Positions 852-27,172 of a stretch of 27,172 nt of DNA are shown here, one piece after another. The notes below the pieces were generated by a model, which saw only the letters and a list, made by a program, of their open reading frames with translations, made no database searches and was not told the DNA's origin. Position 1 is the first letter of the stretch. The number at the start of each line of letters is the position of its first letter. Made by a program: the position numbers and the translations under genes. The DNA is from a virus (taxonomy: Duplodnaviria > Heunggongvirae > Uroviricota > Caudoviricetes): the IMG/VR virus record IMGVR_UViG_2844443253_000009, one strand, 5' to 3'.

Positions 852-2603
852 ATGCTCCCGACAAATAACAATCACAGATTAATTTCAAATTCGTTCTCCA
901 CTTATTCAATCGACACTAGCCGCGCATATGAAAATTATCTAACCCATTGGACTGAATGGAAAAATAACCGCATACAAGAAGAACAACGAGACATCGCTTT
1001 TCAGCGACTAGTATCATGTCTACAAAACCAAGAGACGAACCTGGACTTGTCTGAATTAGGCCTGACAACATTACCTGAAATCCCCCCGGGAATTAAATCA
1101 ATTAATATAAGTAAAAATAATTTAAGCTTAATCTCCCCATTGCCTGCGTCCCTTACACAACTTAATGTCAGCTATAACAGACTTATTGAACTGCCTGCTT
1201 TGCCTCAAGGACTTAAATTATTGAATGCGTCCCACAATCAACTAATCACACTACCCACACTCCCCATATCTTTGAAGGAGCTTCATGTCTCAAATAATCA
1301 ATTATGTTCTCTTCCTGTTTTACCAGAACTACTGGAAACATTAGATGTATCATGTAATGGGCTGGCAGTTTTACCACCTTTACCATTTTCTTTACAAGAG
1401 ATTAGCGCAATAGGGAATCTTCTTAGTGAACTCCCCCCTCTACCTCACAACATTCACTCCATATGGGCAATCGACAATATGTTAACCGATATTCCATACC
1501 TGCCGGAAAATTTAAGGAACGGTTATTTTGACATAAATCAGATAAGTCATATCCCGGAAAGCATTCTTAATCTGAGGAATGAATGTTCAATAGATATTAG
1601 TGATAACCCATTGTCATCCCATGCTCTGCAATCCCTGCAAAGATTAACATCTTCGCCGGACTACCACGGCCCGCAGATTTACTTCTCCATGAGTGACGGA
1701 CAACAGAATACACTCCATCGCCCCCTGGCTGATGCCGTGACAGCATGGTTCCCGGAAAACAAACAATCTGATGTATCACAGATATGGCATGCTTTTGAAC
1801 ATGAAGAGCACGCCAACACCTTTTCCGCGTTCCTTGACCGCCTTTCCGATACCGTCTCTGCACGCAATACCTCCGGATTCCGTGAACAGGTCGCTGCATG
1901 GCTGGAAAAACTCAGTGCCTCTGCGGAGCTTCGACAGCAGTCTTTCGCTGTTGCTGCTGATGCCACTGAAAGCTGTGAGGACCGTGTCGCGCTCACATGG
2001 AACAATCTCCGGAAAACCCTCCTGGTCCATCAGGCATCTGAAGGCCTTTTCGATAATGATACCGGCGCTCTGCTCTCCCTGGGCAGGGAAATGTTCCGCC
2101 TCGAAATTCTGGAGGACATTGCCCGGGATAAAGTCAGAACTCTCCATTTTGTGGATGAGATAGAAGTCTACCTGGCCTTCCAGACCATGCTCGCAGAGAA
2201 ACTTCAGCTCTCCACTGCCGTGAAGGAAATGCGTTTCTATGGCGTGTCGGGAGTGACAGCAAATGACCTCCGCACTGCCGAAGCCATGGTCAGAAGCCGT
2301 GAAGAGAATGAATTTACGGACTGGTTCTCCCTCTGGGGACCATGGCATGCTGTACTGAAGCGTACGGAAGCTGACCGCTGGGCGCTGGCAGAAGAGCAGA
2401 AATATGAGATGCTGGAGAATGAGTACCCTCAGAGGGTGGCTGACCGGCTGAAAGCATCAGGTCTGAGCGGTGATGCGGATGCGGAGAGGGAAGCCGGTGC
2501 ACAGGTGATGCGTGAGACTGAACAGCAGATTTACCGTCAGCTGACTGACGAGGTACTGGCCCTGCGATTGCCTGAAAACGGCTCACAACTGCACCATTCA
2601 TAA
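852..2603 (+). CDS. ipaH: IpaH-family type III secreted effector, LRR domain plus C-terminal NEL E3 ubiquitin ligase domain
   Basis: 583 aa. N-terminal leucine-rich repeats (LxxLPxLPxxLxxLxxSxNxL). The C-terminal ~300 aa are near-identical to the conserved IpaH C-terminus as remembered (RNECSIDISDNPLSSHALQSLQRLTSSPDYHGPQIYFSM ... LHHS), including the catalytic-Cys region ESCEDRVALTWNNLRKT. Confidence 0.95.
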   Translation: MLPTNNNHRLISNSFSTYSIDTSRAYENYLTHWTEWKNNRIQEEQRDIAFQRLVSCLQNQETNLDLSELGLTTLPEIPPGIKSINISKNNLSLISPLPASLTQLNVSYNRLIELPALPQGLKLLNASHNQLITLPTLPISLKELHVSNNQLCSLPVLPELLETLDVSCNGLAVLPPLPFSLQEISAIGNLLSELPPLPHNIHSIWAIDNMLTDIPYLPENLRNGYFDINQISHIPESILNLRNECSIDISDNPLSSHALQSLQRLTSSPDYHGPQIYFSMSDGQQNTLHRPLADAVTAWFPENKQSDVSQIWHAFEHEEHANTFSAFLDRLSDTVSARNTSGFREQVAAWLEKLSASAELRQQSFAVAADATESCEDRVALTWNNLRKTLLVHQASEGLFDNDTGALLSLGREMFRLEILEDIARDKVRTLHFVDEIEVYLAFQTMLAEKLQLSTAVKEMRFYGVSGVTANDLRTAEAMVRSREENEFTDWFSLWGPWHAVLKRTEADRWALAEEQKYEMLENEYPQRVADRLKASGLSGDADAEREAGAQVMRETEQQIYRQLTDEVLALRLPENGSQLHHS

Positions 2604-19965: not shown

Positions 19966-20041
19966 TGGTGGCCCTTGCTGGACTTGAACCAGCGACCTGG
20001 CGATTATGAGTCGCTCGCTCTCACCACTGAGCTAAAGGGCC
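19966..20041 (-). tRNA. tRNA with CAU anticodon: tRNA-Ile2 (lysidine)-like, elongator Met not excluded
   Basis: 76 nt: GGCCCTTTAGCTCAGTGGTGAGAGCGAGCGACTCATAATCGCCAGGTCGCTGGTTCAAGTCCAGCAAGGGCCACCA. Closely resembles E. coli ileX/ileY as remembered. Confidence 0.8.
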
Positions 20042-20217: not shown

Positions 20218-20907
20218 TTAATCTACTTTTGCAATACTTTGCTTTGAAAATGCCGCTTTTTGTTCTGAACGTGTTCTCATCACAAACAATAAAGCCTCAC
20301 TATCCAGTCGGTGAAAAATGTGTTTCATTACAACCCAGTGACCAGTAAATGTTTTGGACCAGTTTTTGGTTGTTACTCCCGCCAGTAATGCCAGCTCCTG
20401 ATATTCATAACCTTCCCCACCAAAAAGTTCTGCTTTTACCGCCTGCGCCGCCAGCCAGATTAATTTTTTCAGGCGTTCCTGTGTTTTCTCTGCAATTTTC
20501 CTAGTGCCAGAATGAGCCTTAAACTCTTCCCACGCCCAGTGGGTTATGGTGATCTGATACTCCCAGCAAATACTTCCGCTGTAACACCACAACAACCAGG
20601 CTTTATAGTGCTCTTCAAGAGACAGAACAGCCCGCCGCCACGATGATGTCGAAAACGCAACCTGACTGACCAGAGGAATTGACGCCCCCTTCGCCAGTGA
20701 TTGTTTTCCCGGGATTGGTGGATTATCCCGCGTTATCATTTTTCCGGTCACCTCATCGCGGTACCGGATTTTTTTACGCCTGTAACGCCCTGTATCGAAC
20801 ATGGCATTCTCCTGCCAGGCTTCAAGCTGACCTTTTGTCGCCCCACTCAAATCAGCGGTGGCGATAATGAGCTGCTCACGAACAAACTGTAAATACTGGT
20901 TATTCAT
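20218..20907 (-). CDS. Putative late-gene antiterminator (Q-like), called from synteny
   Basis: 229 aa (MNNQYLQFVREQ...). ATG at 20907 overlaps the rusA stop (ATGA). It lies between rusA and the tRNA cluster, where Q sits in 82/933W-type lambdoid phages. No confident sequence-level match recalled. Confidence 0.45.
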   Translation of the reverse strand: MNNQYLQFVREQLIIATADLSGATKGQLEAWQENAMFDTGRYRRKKIRYRDEVTGKMITRDNPPIPGKQSLAKGASIPLVSQVAFSTSSWRRAVLSLEEHYKAWLLWCYSGSICWEYQITITHWAWEEFKAHSGTRKIAEKTQERLKKLIWLAAQAVKAELFGGEGYEYQELALLAGVTTKNWSKTFTGHWVVMKHIFHRLDSEALLFVMRTRSEQKAAFSKQSIAKVD

Positions 20908-21263
20908 GCACACTCCAGCTCTGTGATTTTTATCCCCAACCGACCACCAGGAACAGGCAGTCCGCGCACAATATTGGTTTCATCAAACTGCTCGTCGTCG
21001 ATAAGCAACCCCGCATGTGTCAGTGCATCCAGTGGTGCTTTCAGGATATTGTCCAGGTCACGACGCCGCTTATCCGGTGGCTCTGCAATAATCTTTATCG
21101 CCAGTCTTCCGGACAGGCTTAATTTCAGTCGCTGCTGACGGACAATAAGCGCCACATCCCGGCGATAACGCTCACCGGCTTTTGATACAAAATATGTGCT
21201 GCCACGACGTCGCCAGTAAGTATTCACCGTCGGCGGATAAGGTAAAATAAACTCATGGCGCAT
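20904..21263 (-). CDS. rusA: Holliday junction resolvase RusA
   Basis: 119 aa. YPPTVNTYWRRRG...DKRRRDLDNILKAPLDALTHAGLLIDDEQ...GGRLGIKITE matches the RusA family (E. coli RusA: PWPPSNNRYYRH...[29 protein letters not shown]...GGRLELTITE). Confidence 0.9.
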   Translation of the reverse strand: MRHEFILPYPPTVNTYWRRRGSTYFVSKAGERYRRDVALIVRQQRLKLSLSGRLAIKIIAEPPDKRRRDLDNILKAPLDALTHAGLLIDDEQFDETNIVRGLPVPGGRLGIKITELECA

Positions 21264-21400
21264 CAGCGCAGCACCTCCTGCACCAGCTTTTCAAACTTTC
21301 CGACTCTGGTTTCCAGCTCTGCCACACAGTCCACCAGCTCATCTACTGCTTTCTGTGCGCGATGCTTCGCCTGCATCAGTTCCCGAAGCGCGGGTACCAT
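21263..21400 (-). CDS. Small coiled-coil ORF or 3' gene remnant abutting the IS600 left end
   Basis: 45 codons (MVPALRELMQAKHRAQKAVDELVDCVAELETRVGKFEKLVQEVLR). Stop overlaps the rusA start. The ATG is 2 bp from the IS600 end, so this is either a complete small gene whose upstream signals were replaced by the IS or the C-terminus of a truncated gene. Confidence 0.3.
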   Translation of the reverse strand: MVPALRELMQAKHRAQKAVDELVDCVAELETRVGKFEKLVQEVLR

Positions 21401-21466
21401 ATTGAGGTAGCCTGAGTTTAACGGACACTCCTTCCTGAAATAGAATGGCATCAGAAGGAGCCAATA

Positions 21467-21769
21467 ATGAGCAGAAAAACCCAACGTTACTCTAAATAGT
21501 TCAAAGCCGAAGCTGTCAGAACGGTTCTTGAAAATCAACTTTCGATCAGTGAAGGCGCTTCCCGATTATCCCTTCCTGAAGGCACTTTAGGACAATGGGT
21601 TACCGCCGCCAGAAAAGGGCTCGGTACTCCTGGTTCCCGCACGGTGGCTGAACTGGAATCTGAAATTCTGCAACTGCGTAAGGCGTTAAATGAAGCTCGC
21701 CTTGAGCGAGATATATTAAAAAAAGCAACAGCGTATTTTGCACAGGAGTCGCTGAAAAATACGCGTTAA
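21467..21769 (+). pseudogene. IS600 orfA with an in-frame amber stop at codon 11
   Basis: Translation reads MSRKTQRYSK-stop(TAG at 21497-21499)-FKAEAVRTVLENQLSISEGASRLSLPEGTLGQWVTAARKGLGTPGSRTVAELESEILQLRKALNEARLERDILKKATAYFAQESLKNTR. Intact IS600 OrfA has Glu at this codon (GAG to TAG). Confidence 0.8.
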
Positions 21770-21804
21770 TCGAACAATGGCGACAACAATTTCCCATTGA
21801 AGCG

Positions 21805-22623
21805 ATGTGTCAGGTATTTGGTGTATCCAGGAGCGGTTATTACAACTGGGTACAGCATGAACCCTCAGACAGAAAACAAAGTGATGAGCGGCTAAAACTG
21901 GAGATTAAGGTGGCACATATCCGCACTCGCGAAACATATGGAACCCGGCGGCTCCAGACGGAGCTGGCAGAGAATGGCATCATCGTTGGTCGTGACCGAC
22001 TGGCACGTCTTCGTAAGGAGCTGAGGCTACGCTGTAAGCAGAAACGCAAGTTCAGAGCGACTACGAACCCGAACCACAATCTGCCAGTTGCGCCAAATCT
22101 GCTGAACCAGACGTTCGCTCCTACAGCACCAAATCAGGTCTGGGTGGCGGACCTGACGTATGTTGCCACACAGGAGGGATGGTTGTACCTCGCTGGCATC
22201 AAAGATGTTTATACGTGTGAAATTGTCGGCTACGCCATGGGAGAGCGCATGACAAAAGAGCTGACAGGTAAAGCCCTGTTTATGGCGCTCAGGAGCCAGC
22301 GCCCACCTGCCGGGCTAATCCACCACTCTGATCGAGGTTCACAGTACTGCGCATACGATTACCGGGTCATACAGGAGCAGTTTGGTCTGAAAACATCAAT
22401 GTCGCGTAAAGGTAACTGTTACGACAACGCTCCGATGGAAAGCTTCTGGGGAACGCTGAAAAATGAGAGCCTGAGCCACTATCGTTTTAATAACCGGGAT
22501 GAAGCCATCTCAGTAATACGGGAATACATTGAGATTTTCTACAATCGTCAGCGTCGTCACTCTCGTCTGGGGAATATCTCCCCGGCAGCCTTCAGGGAAA
22601 AATATCATCAGATGGCTGCTTAA
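21805..22623 (+). CDS. IS600 orfB (DDE integrase core; normally made as an OrfAB fusion by -1 frameshift)
   Basis: 272 aa with an rve-type catalytic core (VWVADLTYV ... HSDRGSQY ... NCYDNAPMESFWGTLK). Frame is -1 relative to orfA. Confidence 0.9.
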   Translation: MCQVFGVSRSGYYNWVQHEPSDRKQSDERLKLEIKVAHIRTRETYGTRRLQTELAENGIIVGRDRLARLRKELRLRCKQKRKFRATTNPNHNLPVAPNLLNQTFAPTAPNQVWVADLTYVATQEGWLYLAGIKDVYTCEIVGYAMGERMTKELTGKALFMALRSQRPPAGLIHHSDRGSQYCAYDYRVIQEQFGLKTSMSRKGNCYDNAPMESFWGTLKNESLSHYRFNNRDEAISVIREYIEIFYNRQRRHSRLGNISPAAFREKYHQMAA

Positions 22624-22665
22624 AAAAGAACAAATGGTAGTGTCCGCTATTGCCAGTACACCTCA

Positions 22666-22875
22666 CAACGCCATCCTGACAAGCGTTTTATCTTCAACGG
22701 GAATGAGATATGGAAACGTGGAGAATCAACCACAGAGTATACCCGCGCACACCAGCGAACAATCAGACGACTGCGCAGACTCATCGCCAGGAAACAGTAT
22801 ACAGAAAAATGGTTCAGAAAATATGACACATGGAGCGCCGGATATTACGAACTGATGGCAACAAAACCATTCTGA
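22666..22875 (+). other. 5'-truncated ORF remnant starting at the IS600 right boundary
   Basis: The open frame begins at the IS boundary and has no start codon: QRHPDKRFIFNGNEIWKRGESTTEYTRAHQRTIRRLRRLIARKQYTEKWFRKYDTWSAGYYELMATKPF-stop. It is protein-like but no family is recognised. Confidence 0.3.
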
Positions 22876-22935
22876 CGTAAACGAAATTAACCATGACGCA
22901 ATTAAATAAGGCAAGCCGAATACATCAGGAGGACC

Positions 22936-23124
22936 ATGAACATTTATTTCAGAATAGTTATATCACTGGCAATTATCGCATGTATTTACGGATTAATCGT
23001 TCCGGCCCTCATATCAATGAAGGATACGGTAGCAGTGATTTCTGGCTTTGCTCTGGCGTGTCTGACCCCGCCCTGCATTTATGCCATTTATAAGGGTCTT
23101 TCTTTTTCTAAGGATAAAAGATGA
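22936..23124 (+). CDS. Small membrane protein (62 aa, two predicted transmembrane helices)
   Basis: Strong RBS (AGGAGGACC) before the ATG. Two hydrophobic segments (IVISLAIIACIYGLIVPALI and VAVISGFALACLTPPCIYAIY). Stop overlaps the start of the next gene (ATGA). Confidence 0.6.
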   Translation: MNIYFRIVISLAIIACIYGLIVPALISMKDTVAVISGFALACLTPPCIYAIYKGLSFSKDKR

Positions 23125-23948
23125 AAAAAGTTATTCCTGCTTTAGCCCTTGTTCTGCTGACCACCGGACTTGTCGGTTGCGATCGCGTTGAGCCTGGTAA
23201 TGTTGGCATCAAGGTAAACAAACTGGGCGACGATAAAGGCGTCGGAGAAGTGGTCGGTGTTGGGCGCTACTGGACGGGATGGAACACTGAGGTTTACATC
23301 TTCCCGACCTTCAAACAAATGAAGACCTACGATGAGCCATTCAGCTTCCAGATGAGTGACGGTACAACCATCGGCTATCACATCGGCGTGGCCTACAAAG
23401 TTGATCCATCCAAAGTTACCACAGTCTTTCAGACCTACCGCAAAGGCGTGGACGACATTACCGACACCGACCTGCGCCAGAAGATAGCCGACGCACTCAA
23501 CCGACTGGCCAGCAAAATGACCACCGACAAATTTATCGACGGCGGCAAGTCTGAGCTGCTGGATGCAGCTCTTAAAGACATTCAGGAAGAAATGACGCCC
23601 ATCGGTATTCAGGTAATGAGCCTCTCATATGTGGGTAAGCCGGAGTACCCGCCTACTGTTATCGACAGCATTAATGCCAAAGTCACGGCGAACCAGAAAA
23701 CCCTGCAATGCGAGCAGGAAGTAAAACAGCGCGAAGCGGAAGCCAACATGTTGCGCGCGGAAGCTGCCGGACAGGCAGATGCGATTCGCACAAAAGCCCA
23801 GGCCGAAGCCGATGCTATTCGTTTACGCGGTGAAGCTCTGCGCCAGAACCCAAACGTTATGGAGCTGGAAGCCATCAACAAGTGGAACGGTACACTGCCG
23901 CAATACATGACCAGCGGTGCCAACACACCATTTATTCAGGTTAAGTAA
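23121..23948 (+). CDS. SPFH/band-7 (prohibitin/HflC-like) domain lipoprotein
   Basis: 275 aa. Lipoprotein signal peptide with lipobox LVGC (MKKVIPALALVLLTTGLVGCD). Central band-7-like region and a C-terminal Ala/Glu-rich coiled coil (QREAEANMLRAEAAGQADAIRTKAQAEADAIRLRGEALRQ). Confidence 0.8.
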   Translation: MKKVIPALALVLLTTGLVGCDRVEPGNVGIKVNKLGDDKGVGEVVGVGRYWTGWNTEVYIFPTFKQMKTYDEPFSFQMSDGTTIGYHIGVAYKVDPSKVTTVFQTYRKGVDDITDTDLRQKIADALNRLASKMTTDKFIDGGKSELLDAALKDIQEEMTPIGIQVMSLSYVGKPEYPPTVIDSINAKVTANQKTLQCEQEVKQREAEANMLRAEAAGQADAIRTKAQAEADAIRLRGEALRQNPNVMELEAINKWNGTLPQYMTSGANTPFIQVK

Positions 23949-23991
23949 TACATATGCCCGGTATTACACGCCGGGCTGTCTGGAGATAAAA

Positions 23992-24741
23992 ATGAATACT
24001 GTAACCATCAACAACAAACAGTTTCCGGTAATCGAATATCGCGGTCAGCGTGTTGTGACGCTGGCGATGATTGATGAAGTCCACCAGCGACCGGAAGGAA
24101 CCGCGCGTGCAGCATTCAACCGAAACCGTGAGCATTTCATCAGCGGTGTGGATTATGCCGAATTAGGTGCGGACGTAATACGTACGGACCTCCCGGAAGG
24201 AACATTCTCTAAATTTGCACCATCGGGGATTGTACTTTTTGAATCAGGTTACCTGATGTTGACGAAGCCATTCAATGACGCCCTTGCCTGGCAGGTTCAG
24301 CGCGAACTGGTTAACAGCTACTTCCGCACTCGCACACCGCTAACGGAAATCGAGATGATCGCTGCGATAGCCGCCGACGCTGTTCGTCAACAGAAGCGCC
24401 TGAATCATGTGGAAGAACAGCTCGAAACAGTCACAGAAGCGGTGGAAACCATCAAACGCGGAAATATGCGCGCCGGATATGTCGGTTACCGCCAGGTGGT
24501 AGCCAAAAGTGGAATGAGTGACACCAAGTGTCGGAATCTGGTGAACGCATATCAAATTCCTACAGACACCCACGAATTCATGACTCCGGACGGTCTGTTG
24601 TCTCGCAGGGCTATCGTCGAGCTTGAGCCATTTATGGCGGCGTTCCACCAAATGATGTCAGAGGCTGACCCACGCGGCACACGCTGGTATCACCCGAAGA
24701 TGGGGCTTTTCCAGGTGATCGGATGGGAGGATAAAGCATGA
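23992..24741 (+). CDS. Phage antirepressor-like protein (ORF6N N-domain, ORF6C-like C-domain)
   Basis: Start at MNTVTINNKQFPVIEYRGQRVVTLAMIDEVHQRPEGTARAAFNRNREHFISGVDY, the characteristic ORF6N (KilA-N-like) signature. RBS GGAGA. The ORF track starts 25 codons upstream. Confidence 0.7.
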   Translation: MNTVTINNKQFPVIEYRGQRVVTLAMIDEVHQRPEGTARAAFNRNREHFISGVDYAELGADVIRTDLPEGTFSKFAPSGIVLFESGYLMLTKPFNDALAWQVQRELVNSYFRTRTPLTEIEMIAAIAADAVRQQKRLNHVEEQLETVTEAVETIKRGNMRAGYVGYRQVVAKSGMSDTKCRNLVNAYQIPTDTHEFMTPDGLLSRRAIVELEPFMAAFHQMMSEADPRGTRWYHPKMGLFQVIGWEDKA

Positions 24742-25307
24742 TCATCCAGTCAAAACTTATTCGCGCCGCTCTGGTGTGCGCTGCTAAAAACGACGTTCGT
24801 TATTACCTGAACGGTCTTCACATCACGCCGAAACATATTGAGGCAACCAATGGTTCCGTGGCACTGCGCATGGCTCACGGCATCCGGACGAAGAAAAACA
24901 TCATTGTCCAGTTCGAAGGGGGCGTCCCGGCCAAAGCCGAAACGACAGAGCTGATTTTTAGTAAAGAGCCGATCGCTGTTCATCGCGACCAGTTTCAGCG
25001 ACGACTGTCCATTACCGGCATTAAACTGGTGGACGGTTGTTTTCCGGATTTGGATCGCATCATTCCGAAAAAGTTTGACCGCTGTACTCACCCGGTGCTC
25101 CAGGCGGGTTACCTGAGTTATCCAGAGAAGATGTTTGGTCGTGAGCGTAAATTTATTCCCGTCCAGTTACGTCCCTCCGGTGACGGGCAAGCGGTCAGAA
25201 TTCAGTTTGATTCCATCATCAACTCAATGTATGGCAATCCTGAATTTGTTGTGATGCCTTGTCGTGATCATGGCGATTTCAACGTGGCTCAGGAGCATCC
25301 GGAATGA
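24738..25307 (+). CDS. Truncated DNA polymerase III beta sliding-clamp (DnaN) homolog, about half length
   Basis: 189 aa. Aligns to E. coli DnaN domains II-III as remembered: DVRYYLNGLHI...IEATNGSVALRM vs DVRYYLNGMLF...TVATDGHRLAV; IAVHRDQF...KLVDGCFPDLDRIIPKKFD vs IRAHVGDF...KLVDGRFPDYRRVLPKNPD; EFVVMPCR vs AAYVVMPMRL. Strong RBS (GGGAGG); ATGA overlap with the upstream gene. Confidence 0.7.
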   Translation: MIIQSKLIRAALVCAAKNDVRYYLNGLHITPKHIEATNGSVALRMAHGIRTKKNIIVQFEGGVPAKAETTELIFSKEPIAVHRDQFQRRLSITGIKLVDGCFPDLDRIIPKKFDRCTHPVLQAGYLSYPEKMFGRERKFIPVQLRPSGDGQAVRIQFDSIINSMYGNPEFVVMPCRDHGDFNVAQEHPE

Positions 25308-25426
25308 AAATCGAATACCAGGACGCCGCAGGAGGTGAATCAATGAGCTGGCCTGATGCAATCGTAACTCTGGGGATGGTATTCGCAGTAGCGTTTGTTG
25401 TGTACTCGATTTGTCGATGGGGATAA
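25304..25426 (+). CDS. Small hydrophobic peptide (40 aa, or 27 aa from the internal ATG)
   Basis: Not in the ORF track (under 60 aa). MKIEYQDAAGGESMSWPDAIVTLGMVFAVAFVVYSICRWG. ATG overlaps the clamp-like gene stop (ATGA). The internal ATG at 25343 is preceded by AGGAGGTGAATCA, and the C-terminal 20 aa form one hydrophobic helix. Confidence 0.35.
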   Translation: MKIEYQDAAGGESMSWPDAIVTLGMVFAVAFVVYSICRWG

Positions 25427-25430
25427 CCAC

Positions 25431-25673
25431 ATGTTCGCTTTGATTCAACGCGGGCAGATATACACAGACAGAGCCGGATACCCAGTAGAAATTACTCGCA
25501 GTACTGAGCACTCAGTGTTCTTTCGGAGGATGGACGGACGTACCGGGCGAGTACGCATCGGTGAATTCAGTAGCCTGTTCGAGCATATTGACCACCTGGA
25601 ATATCACAAGATTCTGGCTGAAACAGAACAAGAAAAGCACCTGAAGAAATTACGCGCAATGCAAAGGAAGTAA
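25431..25673 (+). CDS. Hypothetical protein (80 aa)
   Basis: ORF from MFALIQRGQIYTDRAGYPVEI..., same strand and tightly spaced within the operon. No family recognised. Confidence 0.45.
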   Translation: MFALIQRGQIYTDRAGYPVEITRSTEHSVFFRRMDGRTGRVRIGEFSSLFEHIDHLEYHKILAETEQEKHLKKLRAMQRK

Positions 25674-25676
25674 AAA

Positions 25677-25823
25677 ATGAATAAAGCGTTTGAGCTATGG
25701 GTCCACCAGCGTTACGGCAACCACTACGACCTGACGCGAGATGTTGACGGTTTCTACTGTCGTGAAATTGTGAAACGAATGTTTGAGGTCTGGTGCCACT
25801 GCCGTGGGCTGAGTGTTGTGTGA
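25677..25823 (+). CDS. Hypothetical small protein (48 aa)
   Basis: MNKAFELWVHQRYGNHYDLTRDVDGFYCREIVKRMFEVWCHCRGLSVV with an AAGGAAG RBS. Not in the ORF track (under 60 aa). Confidence 0.4.
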   Translation: MNKAFELWVHQRYGNHYDLTRDVDGFYCREIVKRMFEVWCHCRGLSVV

Positions 25824-25831
25824 GGTAATGC

Positions 25832-25995
25832 ATGGGCAATGTGATTCAACTGGCTCCCAATGAATGGGTTTGTGAAAGCGTTCTAATCGCAATTACCGGG
25901 CTCAAACCAGGCACAATTCTTCGGACCCGGAAAGAATGCTGGATGGTTGGAAGAGAGTATATTCACGTATCACCAGACGGTAATCCAAAGCCTTC
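25832..25995 (+). pseudogene. Small phage ORF, 3'-truncated by the IS911 insertion
   Basis: MGNVIQLAPNEWVCESVLIAITGLKPGTILRTRKECWMVGREYIHVSPDGNPKP is followed directly by the IS911 terminal sequence (TGAAGTGGTCAACAAAAACTGGCCACC); the last 11 codons of the track ORF are IS-encoded. GAGGT RBS. Confidence 0.4.
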
Positions 25996-26003
25996 TGAAG
26001 TGG

Positions 26004-27172
<1,169 letters not shown>

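Follow-up and report, generated by a model that had tools for sequence, protein, structure and literature searches.

What use could a phage have for half a sliding clamp? The question is raised by a gene in the virus record IMGVR_UViG_2844443253_000009 (Caudoviricetes), whose whole 27,172-nt stretch was analysed and is called the window here. The gene encodes a 189-amino acid (AA) relative of the bacterial β sliding clamp, DnaN, to which we refer as the mini-clamp. A preliminary description of the DNA had drawn attention to this 189-AA open reading frame (ORF) and to the motifs VRYYLNG, KLVDG-FPD and VVMP-R of the protein-binding cleft; ORF and motifs are all present, and the motifs could be mapped onto E. 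coli β. On the evidence of its sequence, the mini-clamp is most likely a ring-less receptor for clamp-binding motifs, which would serve either as a decoy or as an adaptor tethered to DNA.

The mini-clamp gene

The mini-clamp ORF is real and intact, and is preceded by a Shine-Dalgarno-like sequence of its own:

24725..24730, plus strand: Shine-Dalgarno-like GGGAGG, 7 nt 5′ of the mini-clamp ATG, read from the sequence
24738..25307, plus strand: mini-clamp coding sequence, 189 AA and stop, identical to WP_000586688.1, with a full-length phrog_3007 match (E=5.9e-65)

Both of its ends overlap with adjoining genes. The ATGA at 24738-24741 contains the stop of the upstream ORF6N gene and the start of the mini-clamp, and the ATGA at 25304-25307 contains the mini-clamp stop and the start of a 40-AA ORF. 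An origin as a fragment of a broken full-length clamp gene was considered and ruled out: the gene has its own Shine-Dalgarno sequence and start, the upstream gene is read in another frame, and both the length (~170-215 AA) and the N-terminus are uniform over thousands of clusters of the family, which argues for a stable architecture. The preliminary description was therefore right to treat the start as independent and the gene as something other than the 3′ end of a disrupted one.

Homology and fold

Taken singly, the mini-clamp sequence resembles DnaN only weakly. It matches TIGR00663 with E=1e-4 (residues 6-115 vs. dnaN 136-254) at 21.2 bits, far under the cutoff of 137.65, and PF02767 (DNA_pol3_beta_2) below threshold, with E=0.007 and 17 bits vs. 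a cutoff of 27. The Pfam scan gave no match to PF00712 or PF02768 at E<=1. A phmmer search of the PDB with the single sequence found residues 136-255 of E. coli-type β at E~2e-3. With family profiles the values were E=7.6e-18 for the match of a 30-sequence profile to Enterobacter and E. coli β in the PDB, and E=6e-30 for the match of a 157-sequence hidden Markov model (HMM) to E. coli DnaN.

The AlphaFold2 model from the 30-sequence alignment, with a predicted local distance difference test (pLDDT) score of 91.9 and a predicted template modelling (pTM) score of 0.87, consists of repeated beta-alpha-beta-beta-beta units, as in the β-clamp fold. Foldseek against the PDB returned the same fold, and the geometry of the mini-clamp superposes on β. 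No solved structure of the short family was found in the PDB searches. Profile matches in the PDB are ordered from Enterobacterales through Pseudomonas and alpha-proteobacteria to Gram-positives, which indicates that the family descends from a proteobacterial dnaN and not from a clamp of the phage gp45 type. The mini-clamp thus appears to be a derivative of proteobacterial dnaN and a bacterial-type clamp homologue, the very assignment made in the preliminary description, which had set it apart from phage-type clamps. The trimeric clamps T4 gp45 and PCNA share the superfold and have protomers smaller than β; their combination of two complete clamp domains with PCNA or gp45 as closest structural match was not found in the mini-clamp.

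Retained and lost parts of the clamp protomer

The mini-clamp aligns to residues 132-256 and 313-366 of β only, and does not have the three-domain, ~360-390-AA protomer of DnaN. Its segments are as follows:

24738..25088, plus strand: domain II equivalent, residues 1-117 (E. coli β ~132-256), from the alignment and the secondary structure of the model
25089..25268, plus strand: C-terminal half of domain III, residues 118-177 (β ~313-366), with an FNxxY-type helix and the terminal VVMPxR strand
25269..25304, plus strand: tail, residues 178-189, found in the enterobacterial prophage clade only; from the alignment, at low confidence (pLDDT 57 for the last block)

Three units of the beta-alpha-beta-beta-beta type are present in the model. 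Unit 1 contains a strand at residues 2-4, a helix at 5-14 and strands at 27-29, 33-37 and 41-46. Unit 2 is helix-less, with strands at 55-59, 69-73, 79-83 and 89-98; a short loop, residues 60-68, stands between the first two of these in place of the second inner helix of domain II. Unit 3 consists of a helix at 123-133, strands at 142-146 and 153-157, a clade-specific short helix at 159-164 and a strand at 169-172. Units 1 and 2 correspond to domain II of β (~132-256) and unit 3 to the second half of its domain III (β 313-366). The modelled architecture is therefore one of 1.5 domains with one inner helix deleted. The outline given earlier, domains II and III with III shortened, stands in general, and so does the absence of domain I, the alignment starting at β ~132; the detail had to be corrected, as only the second half of domain III is kept and domain II has lost its second helix.

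The ring of E. coli β closes where domain I of one protomer meets the first half of domain III of its partner (around I272/L273 and E298-E304). No counterpart of domain I or of β ~256-312 is present in the alignments or the model, and the ring-closing interface is thus without either of its halves. A head-to-tail dimer interface was likewise not found, both contributing segments being absent from sequence and model. Judging from the model, the mini-clamp is unable to form a closed canonical ring or to enter that of the host.

The comparison with DnaN (E. coli β, PDB 1MMI/2POL; TIGR00663; PF00712/PF02767/PF02768) can be put briefly. The two share DVRYYLNG, ATxGH, KLVDGRFPD, FNxxY and VVMPxR together with the cleft residues. 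DnaN has ~366 AA vs. 189 in the mini-clamp, which is without domain I, the second helix of domain II and the first half of domain III, and DnaN is acidic, whereas the mini-clamp is basic and scores well under the curated family cutoffs.

Conservation of the docking cleft

The motif VRYYLNG corresponds to residues 151-157 of E. coli β, KLVDGxFPD to 235-243 and VVMPxR to 360-365. Four segments of the gene encode the pocket:

24783..24815, plus strand: AKNDVRYYLNG, AA 16-26 (β 147-157), including pocket residues R152, Y153 and L155
24843..24863, plus strand: ATNGSVA, AA 36-42 (β 171-177), the T172/G174/H175 wall of the pocket
25023..25067, plus strand: KLVDGCFPDLDRIIP, AA 96-110 (β 235-249), containing P242, R246 and V247
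25245..25265, plus strand: FVVMPCR, AA 170-176 (β 359-365), the C-terminal pocket strand

Conservation was determined in a set made up of the mini-clamp and 156 family members of 165-215 AA, nearly all of them representatives of 50%-identity clusters. Seventeen positions are kept at >=84% (n=157): A11, A16, D19, R21, Y23, L24, G26, T37, G39, H40, I56, G100, P103, Y125, M173, P174 and R176. These were compared with a set of 20 cleft residues listed from general knowledge of β; six of these 20, V247, P242, R152, R246, M362 and T172, are given as inhibitor-binding in the peptide pocket (PMC3335792). Ten of the 17 top positions are cleft residues (R152, L155, T172, G174, H175, P242, Y323, M362, P363 and R365), an overlap with a hypergeometric p of 2e-7, and mean conservation is 0.71 at cleft positions vs. 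0.34 elsewhere. The alignments suggest that the family has kept essentially the docking cleft and shed everything needed for a ring.

The mini-clamp itself has the length of the family (~170-215 AA) and its motifs AKNDVRYYLNG, ATxGH, DGxFPD and VVMPxR, with one deviation. This is S40, which in the E. coli/Shigella lineage replaces the His present in 91% of the family. Both S40 and C101 also occur in a 98%-identical E. coli allele, and hence are fixed and not recent damage.

Distribution and annotation of the family

An exhaustive profile search yielded 2,745 50%-identity clusters at E<=1e-10 and 12,532 at E<=1e-3, the lower-scoring part of which probably includes true DnaN. The best 150 matches are nearly all 170-220 AA long, and in BFVD many phage proteins of 180-250 AA share the fold with TM values of 0.7-0.8. 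Using tblastn, the family was found in 217 GenBank phage records, with hosts including Salmonella, Escherichia, Klebsiella, Vibrio, Proteus, Burkholderia and Shewanella; the gene is present in 60 of 5,426 complete E. coli genomes. The impression that it is unusual, conveyed by the preliminary description, has to be given up in view of a very large phage family, and recent runs of the Prokaryotic Genome Annotation Pipeline (PGAP) already name the identical protein WP_000586688.1 “beta clamp domain-containing protein”. The homology is known to databases and the family is very common, and we do not report the discovery of a new gene.

The mini-clamp belongs to a clade of enterobacterial lambdoid prophages (62-100% identity, 80 loci) that is set apart from the short phage relatives by the 12-residue C-terminal tail and the extra helix 159-164. 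The latter relatives, which include Serratia phage Eta gp10 (“putative beta-clamp protein”) and members from Shigella phage EP23, Escherichia phage TheodorHerzl (gp07) and Skatevirus/Jersey-like phages, have the same motifs and length at 24-35% identity over ~90% of the length. No work on the function or structure of any member of the short family came up in full-text literature searches, in agreement with the earlier remark that no characterised example was known; as far as these searches show, the family is uncharacterised.

GenBank names given to family members are “DNA polymerase III beta subunit”, “putative beta-clamp protein”, “DNA clamp protein” and “RusA-like Holliday junction resolvase”. 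The last of these stems from phrog_3007, positions 3-188 of whose 190 are matched by mini-clamp residues 1-179, and the erroneous label has spread to many phage annotations, e.g., NC_031924, NC_054640, NC_054639 and NC_071156. We rejected a RusA-like resolvase, as no PF05866 match was obtained at E<=1 and the fold is that of the β clamp; the true RusA gene of the window is another one, at 20904-21263.

Genomic context

In lambdoid prophages (E. coli, Klebsiella, Serratia and Providencia) the mini-clamp belongs to the distal part of the early-left operon, with a few genes between it and xis/int. In lambda the early-left operon is home to genes of host takeover, gam, kil and ral among them. The gene directly upstream usually encodes an antirepressor-like protein with ORF6N, Phage_pRha or Bro-N as its N-terminal DNA-binding domain; behind these three different domains a C-terminal domain of ~130 AA is conserved and ends in RW.HP.(M/F)G.F. 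In the window the adjoining genes are:

23992..24741, plus strand: antirepressor-like gene, ORF6N N-terminal domain and conserved ~130-AA C-terminal domain ending RWYHPKMGLF
25304..25426, plus strand: 40-AA ORF with a hydrophobic C-terminus, downstream, its start in ATGA overlap with the mini-clamp stop

The C-terminal domain (phrog_6610 region) is unannotated; it is encoded at 24337-24738 of the window and also in loci L013 (3600-4001), L041, L017 and L141. Its KMGLF stretch resembles the clamp-binding motif QLGLF of Pol II, a likeness that may be coincidental.

Association of the two genes was examined in a sample of 80 prophage-clade loci from IMG/VR, which are related prophages and not independent. 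A gene with the RW.HP C-terminal domain stands directly upstream of the mini-clamp in 64 of the 80, mostly with an ATGA overlap, and precedes even the 32%-identical mini-clamp of Providencia phage PSTCR3. The converse is weak, a mini-clamp following in 28 of 79 loci bearing the RW.HP domain, and several unrelated small genes fill its slot in the others. Co-occurrence is thus one-sided, without the reciprocity of an obligate two-gene module, which makes the mini-clamp one of several cargo genes in a variable slot and not half of an obligate pair. The operon with an antirepressor-like gene described earlier is confirmed as regards translational coupling through ATGA; a dedicated partnership is not. 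For the same reason we rejected the antirepressor-like protein as dedicated ligand of the mini-clamp via its ...HPKMGLF end, and keep it as a weak lead only.

Among the smaller genes around this pair, the 40-AA ORF starts with MKIEYQD and resembles in this a family of 73-85 AA (MKI[EQ]YQDY...) that fills the same slot in related prophages. It leaves that family after ~10 residues to run into a hydrophobic segment and, from its sequence, may be a frameshifted or recombined remnant. Just 5′ of the antirepressor-like gene, at 22936-23948 (plus strand), a gene for a 62-AA protein, for which two membrane helices are predicted, runs into the start of a gene encoding an SPFH/Band-7 lipoprotein (PF01145, E=6e-31; phrog_200), and this pair is kept in the E. 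coli prophage copies examined (L001, which is RMDEC332, L011 and L012). With PADLOC-DB v2.0.0, no defence-system model was matched at E<=0.1 by the mini-clamp and four neighbouring proteins, and a role as defence-system component was rejected.

Distant contexts were sampled from annotated phage records:

Serratia phage Eta: neighbours are a ParB-like protein and a helicase
Skatevirus Pu29: ParB-like protein two genes upstream
Vibrio PVP-XSN: neighbours are a Dam methylase and SSB
Kosakonia Kc237: neighbours are a Dam-like protein and a primase/helicase
marine phage: end of a DnaB/methylase early operon
Ralstonia phage Anchaing (Autographiviridae): left-end early region
Dhillonvirus TheodorHerzl: lone opposite-strand gene within the structural module, in a phage with its own Pol I-type polymerase

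The ParB-like helix-turn-helix protein is found just upstream of the mini-clamp in Skatevirus Pu29 (L004, 4792-5601) and Serratia phage Eta (L002, 6143-6964), which are unrelated lytic or unstable-lysogen phages. ParB-like and Dam neighbours (the latter in Kc237 and PVP-XSN) are possibly recurrent associations. Neither a clamp loader nor a universal partner gene was seen near the mini-clamp in the lambdoid prophage, Dhillonvirus, Skatevirus, Eta, Vibrio, Kosakonia, Ralstonia and marine phage contexts, and a scan of seven loci for clamp-binding motifs at the termini of neighbouring proteins gave nothing convincing.

State of the prophage

The window represents a lambdoid prophage of the Shigella/enteroinvasive E. 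coli (EIEC) type that bears ipaH, has decayed and is riddled with insertion sequences (IS). It carries lambda-like tail genes and Q (20218-20913). An IpaH-family type III effector gene at the tail-fibre end, 852-2603 (plus strand, 583 AA, LRR_TTSS and NEL E3-ubiquitin-ligase domain, E=5.9e-77), marks it as Shigella/EIEC-type. At 17836-19032 (plus strand), adjoining the tail genes, an IS110-family transposase gene (DEDD_Tnp_IS110 and Transposase_20) is found where head and terminase genes would be expected. Four tRNA genes occupy 19732-20041 on the minus strand: Gly(tcc), Thr(tgt), Arg(tct) and one with a CAT anticodon, called Met by ARAGORN and, in its RMDEC332 homologue, Ile by PGAP, presumably as a lysidine-modified tRNA.

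Two further elements lie close to the mini-clamp. IS600 at ~21401-22667 (flanks 21259-21402 and 22665-22937) forms a direct junction between the nin/Q region and the distal early-left genes. The intact prophage of E. coli RMDEC332, which has its copy of IS600 273 bp further downstream, contains ~10.5 kb that the window lacks at this place, with the replication genes (helicase and loader), the repressor, the early promoters and the proximal early genes. The other is an IS3-family element at ~25996-27172 on the minus strand (orfA 26870-27172, orfB 26004-26843), which looks IS911-like; it cuts xis to 65 codons vs. 78 in RMDEC332 and takes the place of the integrase of intact copies. No sigma-70-like promoter was detected on either strand of 22600-26100 vs. 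3.7 +/- 1.9 expected from shuffles, which would fit a long operon whose distant promoter has been deleted. As the immunity and early-promoter region is lost, it is doubtful for this copy that a prophage manipulates its host through it, a possibility raised in the preliminary description.

Proposed role and alternative explanations

From the observed fold, architecture, cleft conservation, distribution and gene position we infer that the mini-clamp would bind peptides, and which ligands and physiological effect it may have. The first half and the last strand of domain II would build, with the C-terminal half of domain III, a hydrophobic cleft able to dock clamp-binding peptides of the QL[SD]LF type. 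The mini-clamp would be expressed early, its gene lying in the distal early-left operon of lambdoid prophages and in early or replication modules of lytic phages. It would bind host Pol III alpha/delta, Hda, Pol II/IV/V and MutS/MutL by their clamp-binding motifs and so keep them from the host clamp. In the accessory setting of the lambdoid prophages the most likely outcome would be competition with host β, as a decoy or in host takeover, and this would fit the host-takeover theme of the early-left operon. That the mini-clamp may be a decoy for proteins with clamp-binding motifs, as proposed in the preliminary description, looks plausible. A ring-less receptor of clamp-binding motifs is the explanation we favour, if at slightly less than even confidence.

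Close to this proposal are phages whose factors target or exploit the host clamp and its partners early in infection. Phage Mu MuC is a phage factor that acts on the host β clamp (PMC12867686), and Gp168 of Staphylococcus phage Twort has been seen on β (PDB 7EVP). Both are non-clamp proteins that bind the host ring, whereas the mini-clamp is a piece of the clamp itself and would act on the partners of the clamp.

Several observations weigh against the favoured explanation. The cleft residues are also among the most conserved in DnaN itself, and constraint by the fold could explain part of their conservation. The E. coli/Shigella lineage is off the family consensus at five of the 20 cleft positions, with H175 replaced by S (S40), L177 by A (A42), N320 by Q (Q122), M364 by C (C175) and L366 by D (D177), so that the ligand may differ from canonical motifs. 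The basic charge and the frequent helicase, primase, SSB, Dam or ParB-like neighbours suit a DNA-bound adaptor at least as well. Finally, with the promoter region of the operon lost and no sigma-70-like promoter found, the local copy may be silent.

The next best explanation is a loader-independent adaptor or processivity factor. Here the basic mini-clamp would sit on DNA without encircling it, directly or via a phage partner, and its cleft would hold a polymerase or other motif-bearing protein. The herpesvirus clamp-fold factors that act without a ring, UL42 of herpes simplex virus 1 (HSV-1), UL44 of human cytomegalovirus (HCMV), PF-8 of Kaposi's sarcoma-associated herpesvirus (KSHV) and BMRF1 of Epstein-Barr virus (EBV), offer a precedent by analogy only, as they have two full PCNA-like domains and belong to a eukaryotic-virus lineage. 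The charge of the family would be in keeping with such an adaptor, the median isoelectric point (pI) being 8.3, with 9.2 and a net charge of +6 for this mini-clamp vs. 5.2 for E. coli β. So would the replication or early-module neighbours in Kc237 and Eta (helicase/primase), PVP-XSN (SSB and Dam), Eta and Pu29 (ParB-like) and the marine phage (DnaB/methylase), and the fact that the family occurs whether a phage encodes a Pol I-type polymerase of its own, as Dhillonvirus does, or not. Yet the gene is optional in lambdoid prophages, as its rarity among complete E. coli genomes and its variable slot show; in Dhillonvirus it stands alone on the opposite strand in the structural module and looks accessory, not like part of a core replisome; no conserved clamp-binding motif was seen at the termini of neighbouring proteins in the seven loci scanned; and one DNA-facing inner helix is deleted. 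We regard an adaptor of this kind as possible, though less likely.

The local copy could also be inert cargo: an ORF that is still intact but, left behind in a prophage under decay, is neither expressed nor under selection any more. The loss of ~10.5 kb beside IS600 with repressor, early promoters and replication genes, the truncation of xis by the IS3-family element, the IS110-family element and the lack of a sigma-70-like promoter in 22600-26100 all agree with this. However, prophages that appear complete have copies with 100% identity to this ORF, IS600 read-through could supply expression, and the argument bears on the local copy only and not on the function of the family. We consider inert cargo improbable.

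Even less probable is a genuine sliding clamp assembled from more and smaller subunits, e.g., from four 1.5-domain protomers. Four times three units would give the twelve beta-alpha-beta-beta-beta units of the β dimer or the PCNA trimer, and length and architecture are kept family-wide; but with the helix of unit 2 lost, a third of the DNA-facing helices would be absent, the canonical inter-protomer interface segments are missing, and no clamp loader lies nearby in any context examined. A poison subunit that would occupy the ring interface of a host DnaN protomer, as its pairing partner, and so prevent closure or loading, the heterodimer envisaged in the preliminary description, is the least probable of all, since neither ring-interface segment has a counterpart in the 189-AA protein, even if some residual affinity for β is conceivable from its proteobacterial dnaN origin and its best PDB matches to Enterobacter and E. 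coli β.

Significance

The pattern of a cleft kept and a ring lost leads to a specific and testable prediction. If the mini-clamp binds no motifs, the family still needs a correct name, given its beta-subunit and wrong RusA-like labels. If it does bind them, it would provide a minimal, monomer-sized scaffold of the β drug-target pocket for studying and screening cleft ligands, and, should the ring-less receptor prove true, the first bacterial-virus counterpart of the herpesvirus clamp-fold factors that work without a ring.

The β cleft is a hub that coordinates all bacterial polymerases, mismatch repair and initiation control, and is an antibiotic target. A natural cleft-only protein of ~180 AA occurs in thousands of phage lineages, including E. 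coli phages that lend themselves to use as models: Dhillonvirus (BASEL collection), Jersey-like phages and lambdoid prophages. We tentatively suggest, with rather less than even confidence, that mini-β proteins represent a widespread phage strategy, in which loader-free, ring-less receptors would capture host Pol III and repair proteins and either divert them onto phage DNA or starve the host clamp. If motif binding holds true, this would be a new phage route to hijack or silence host replication and repair.

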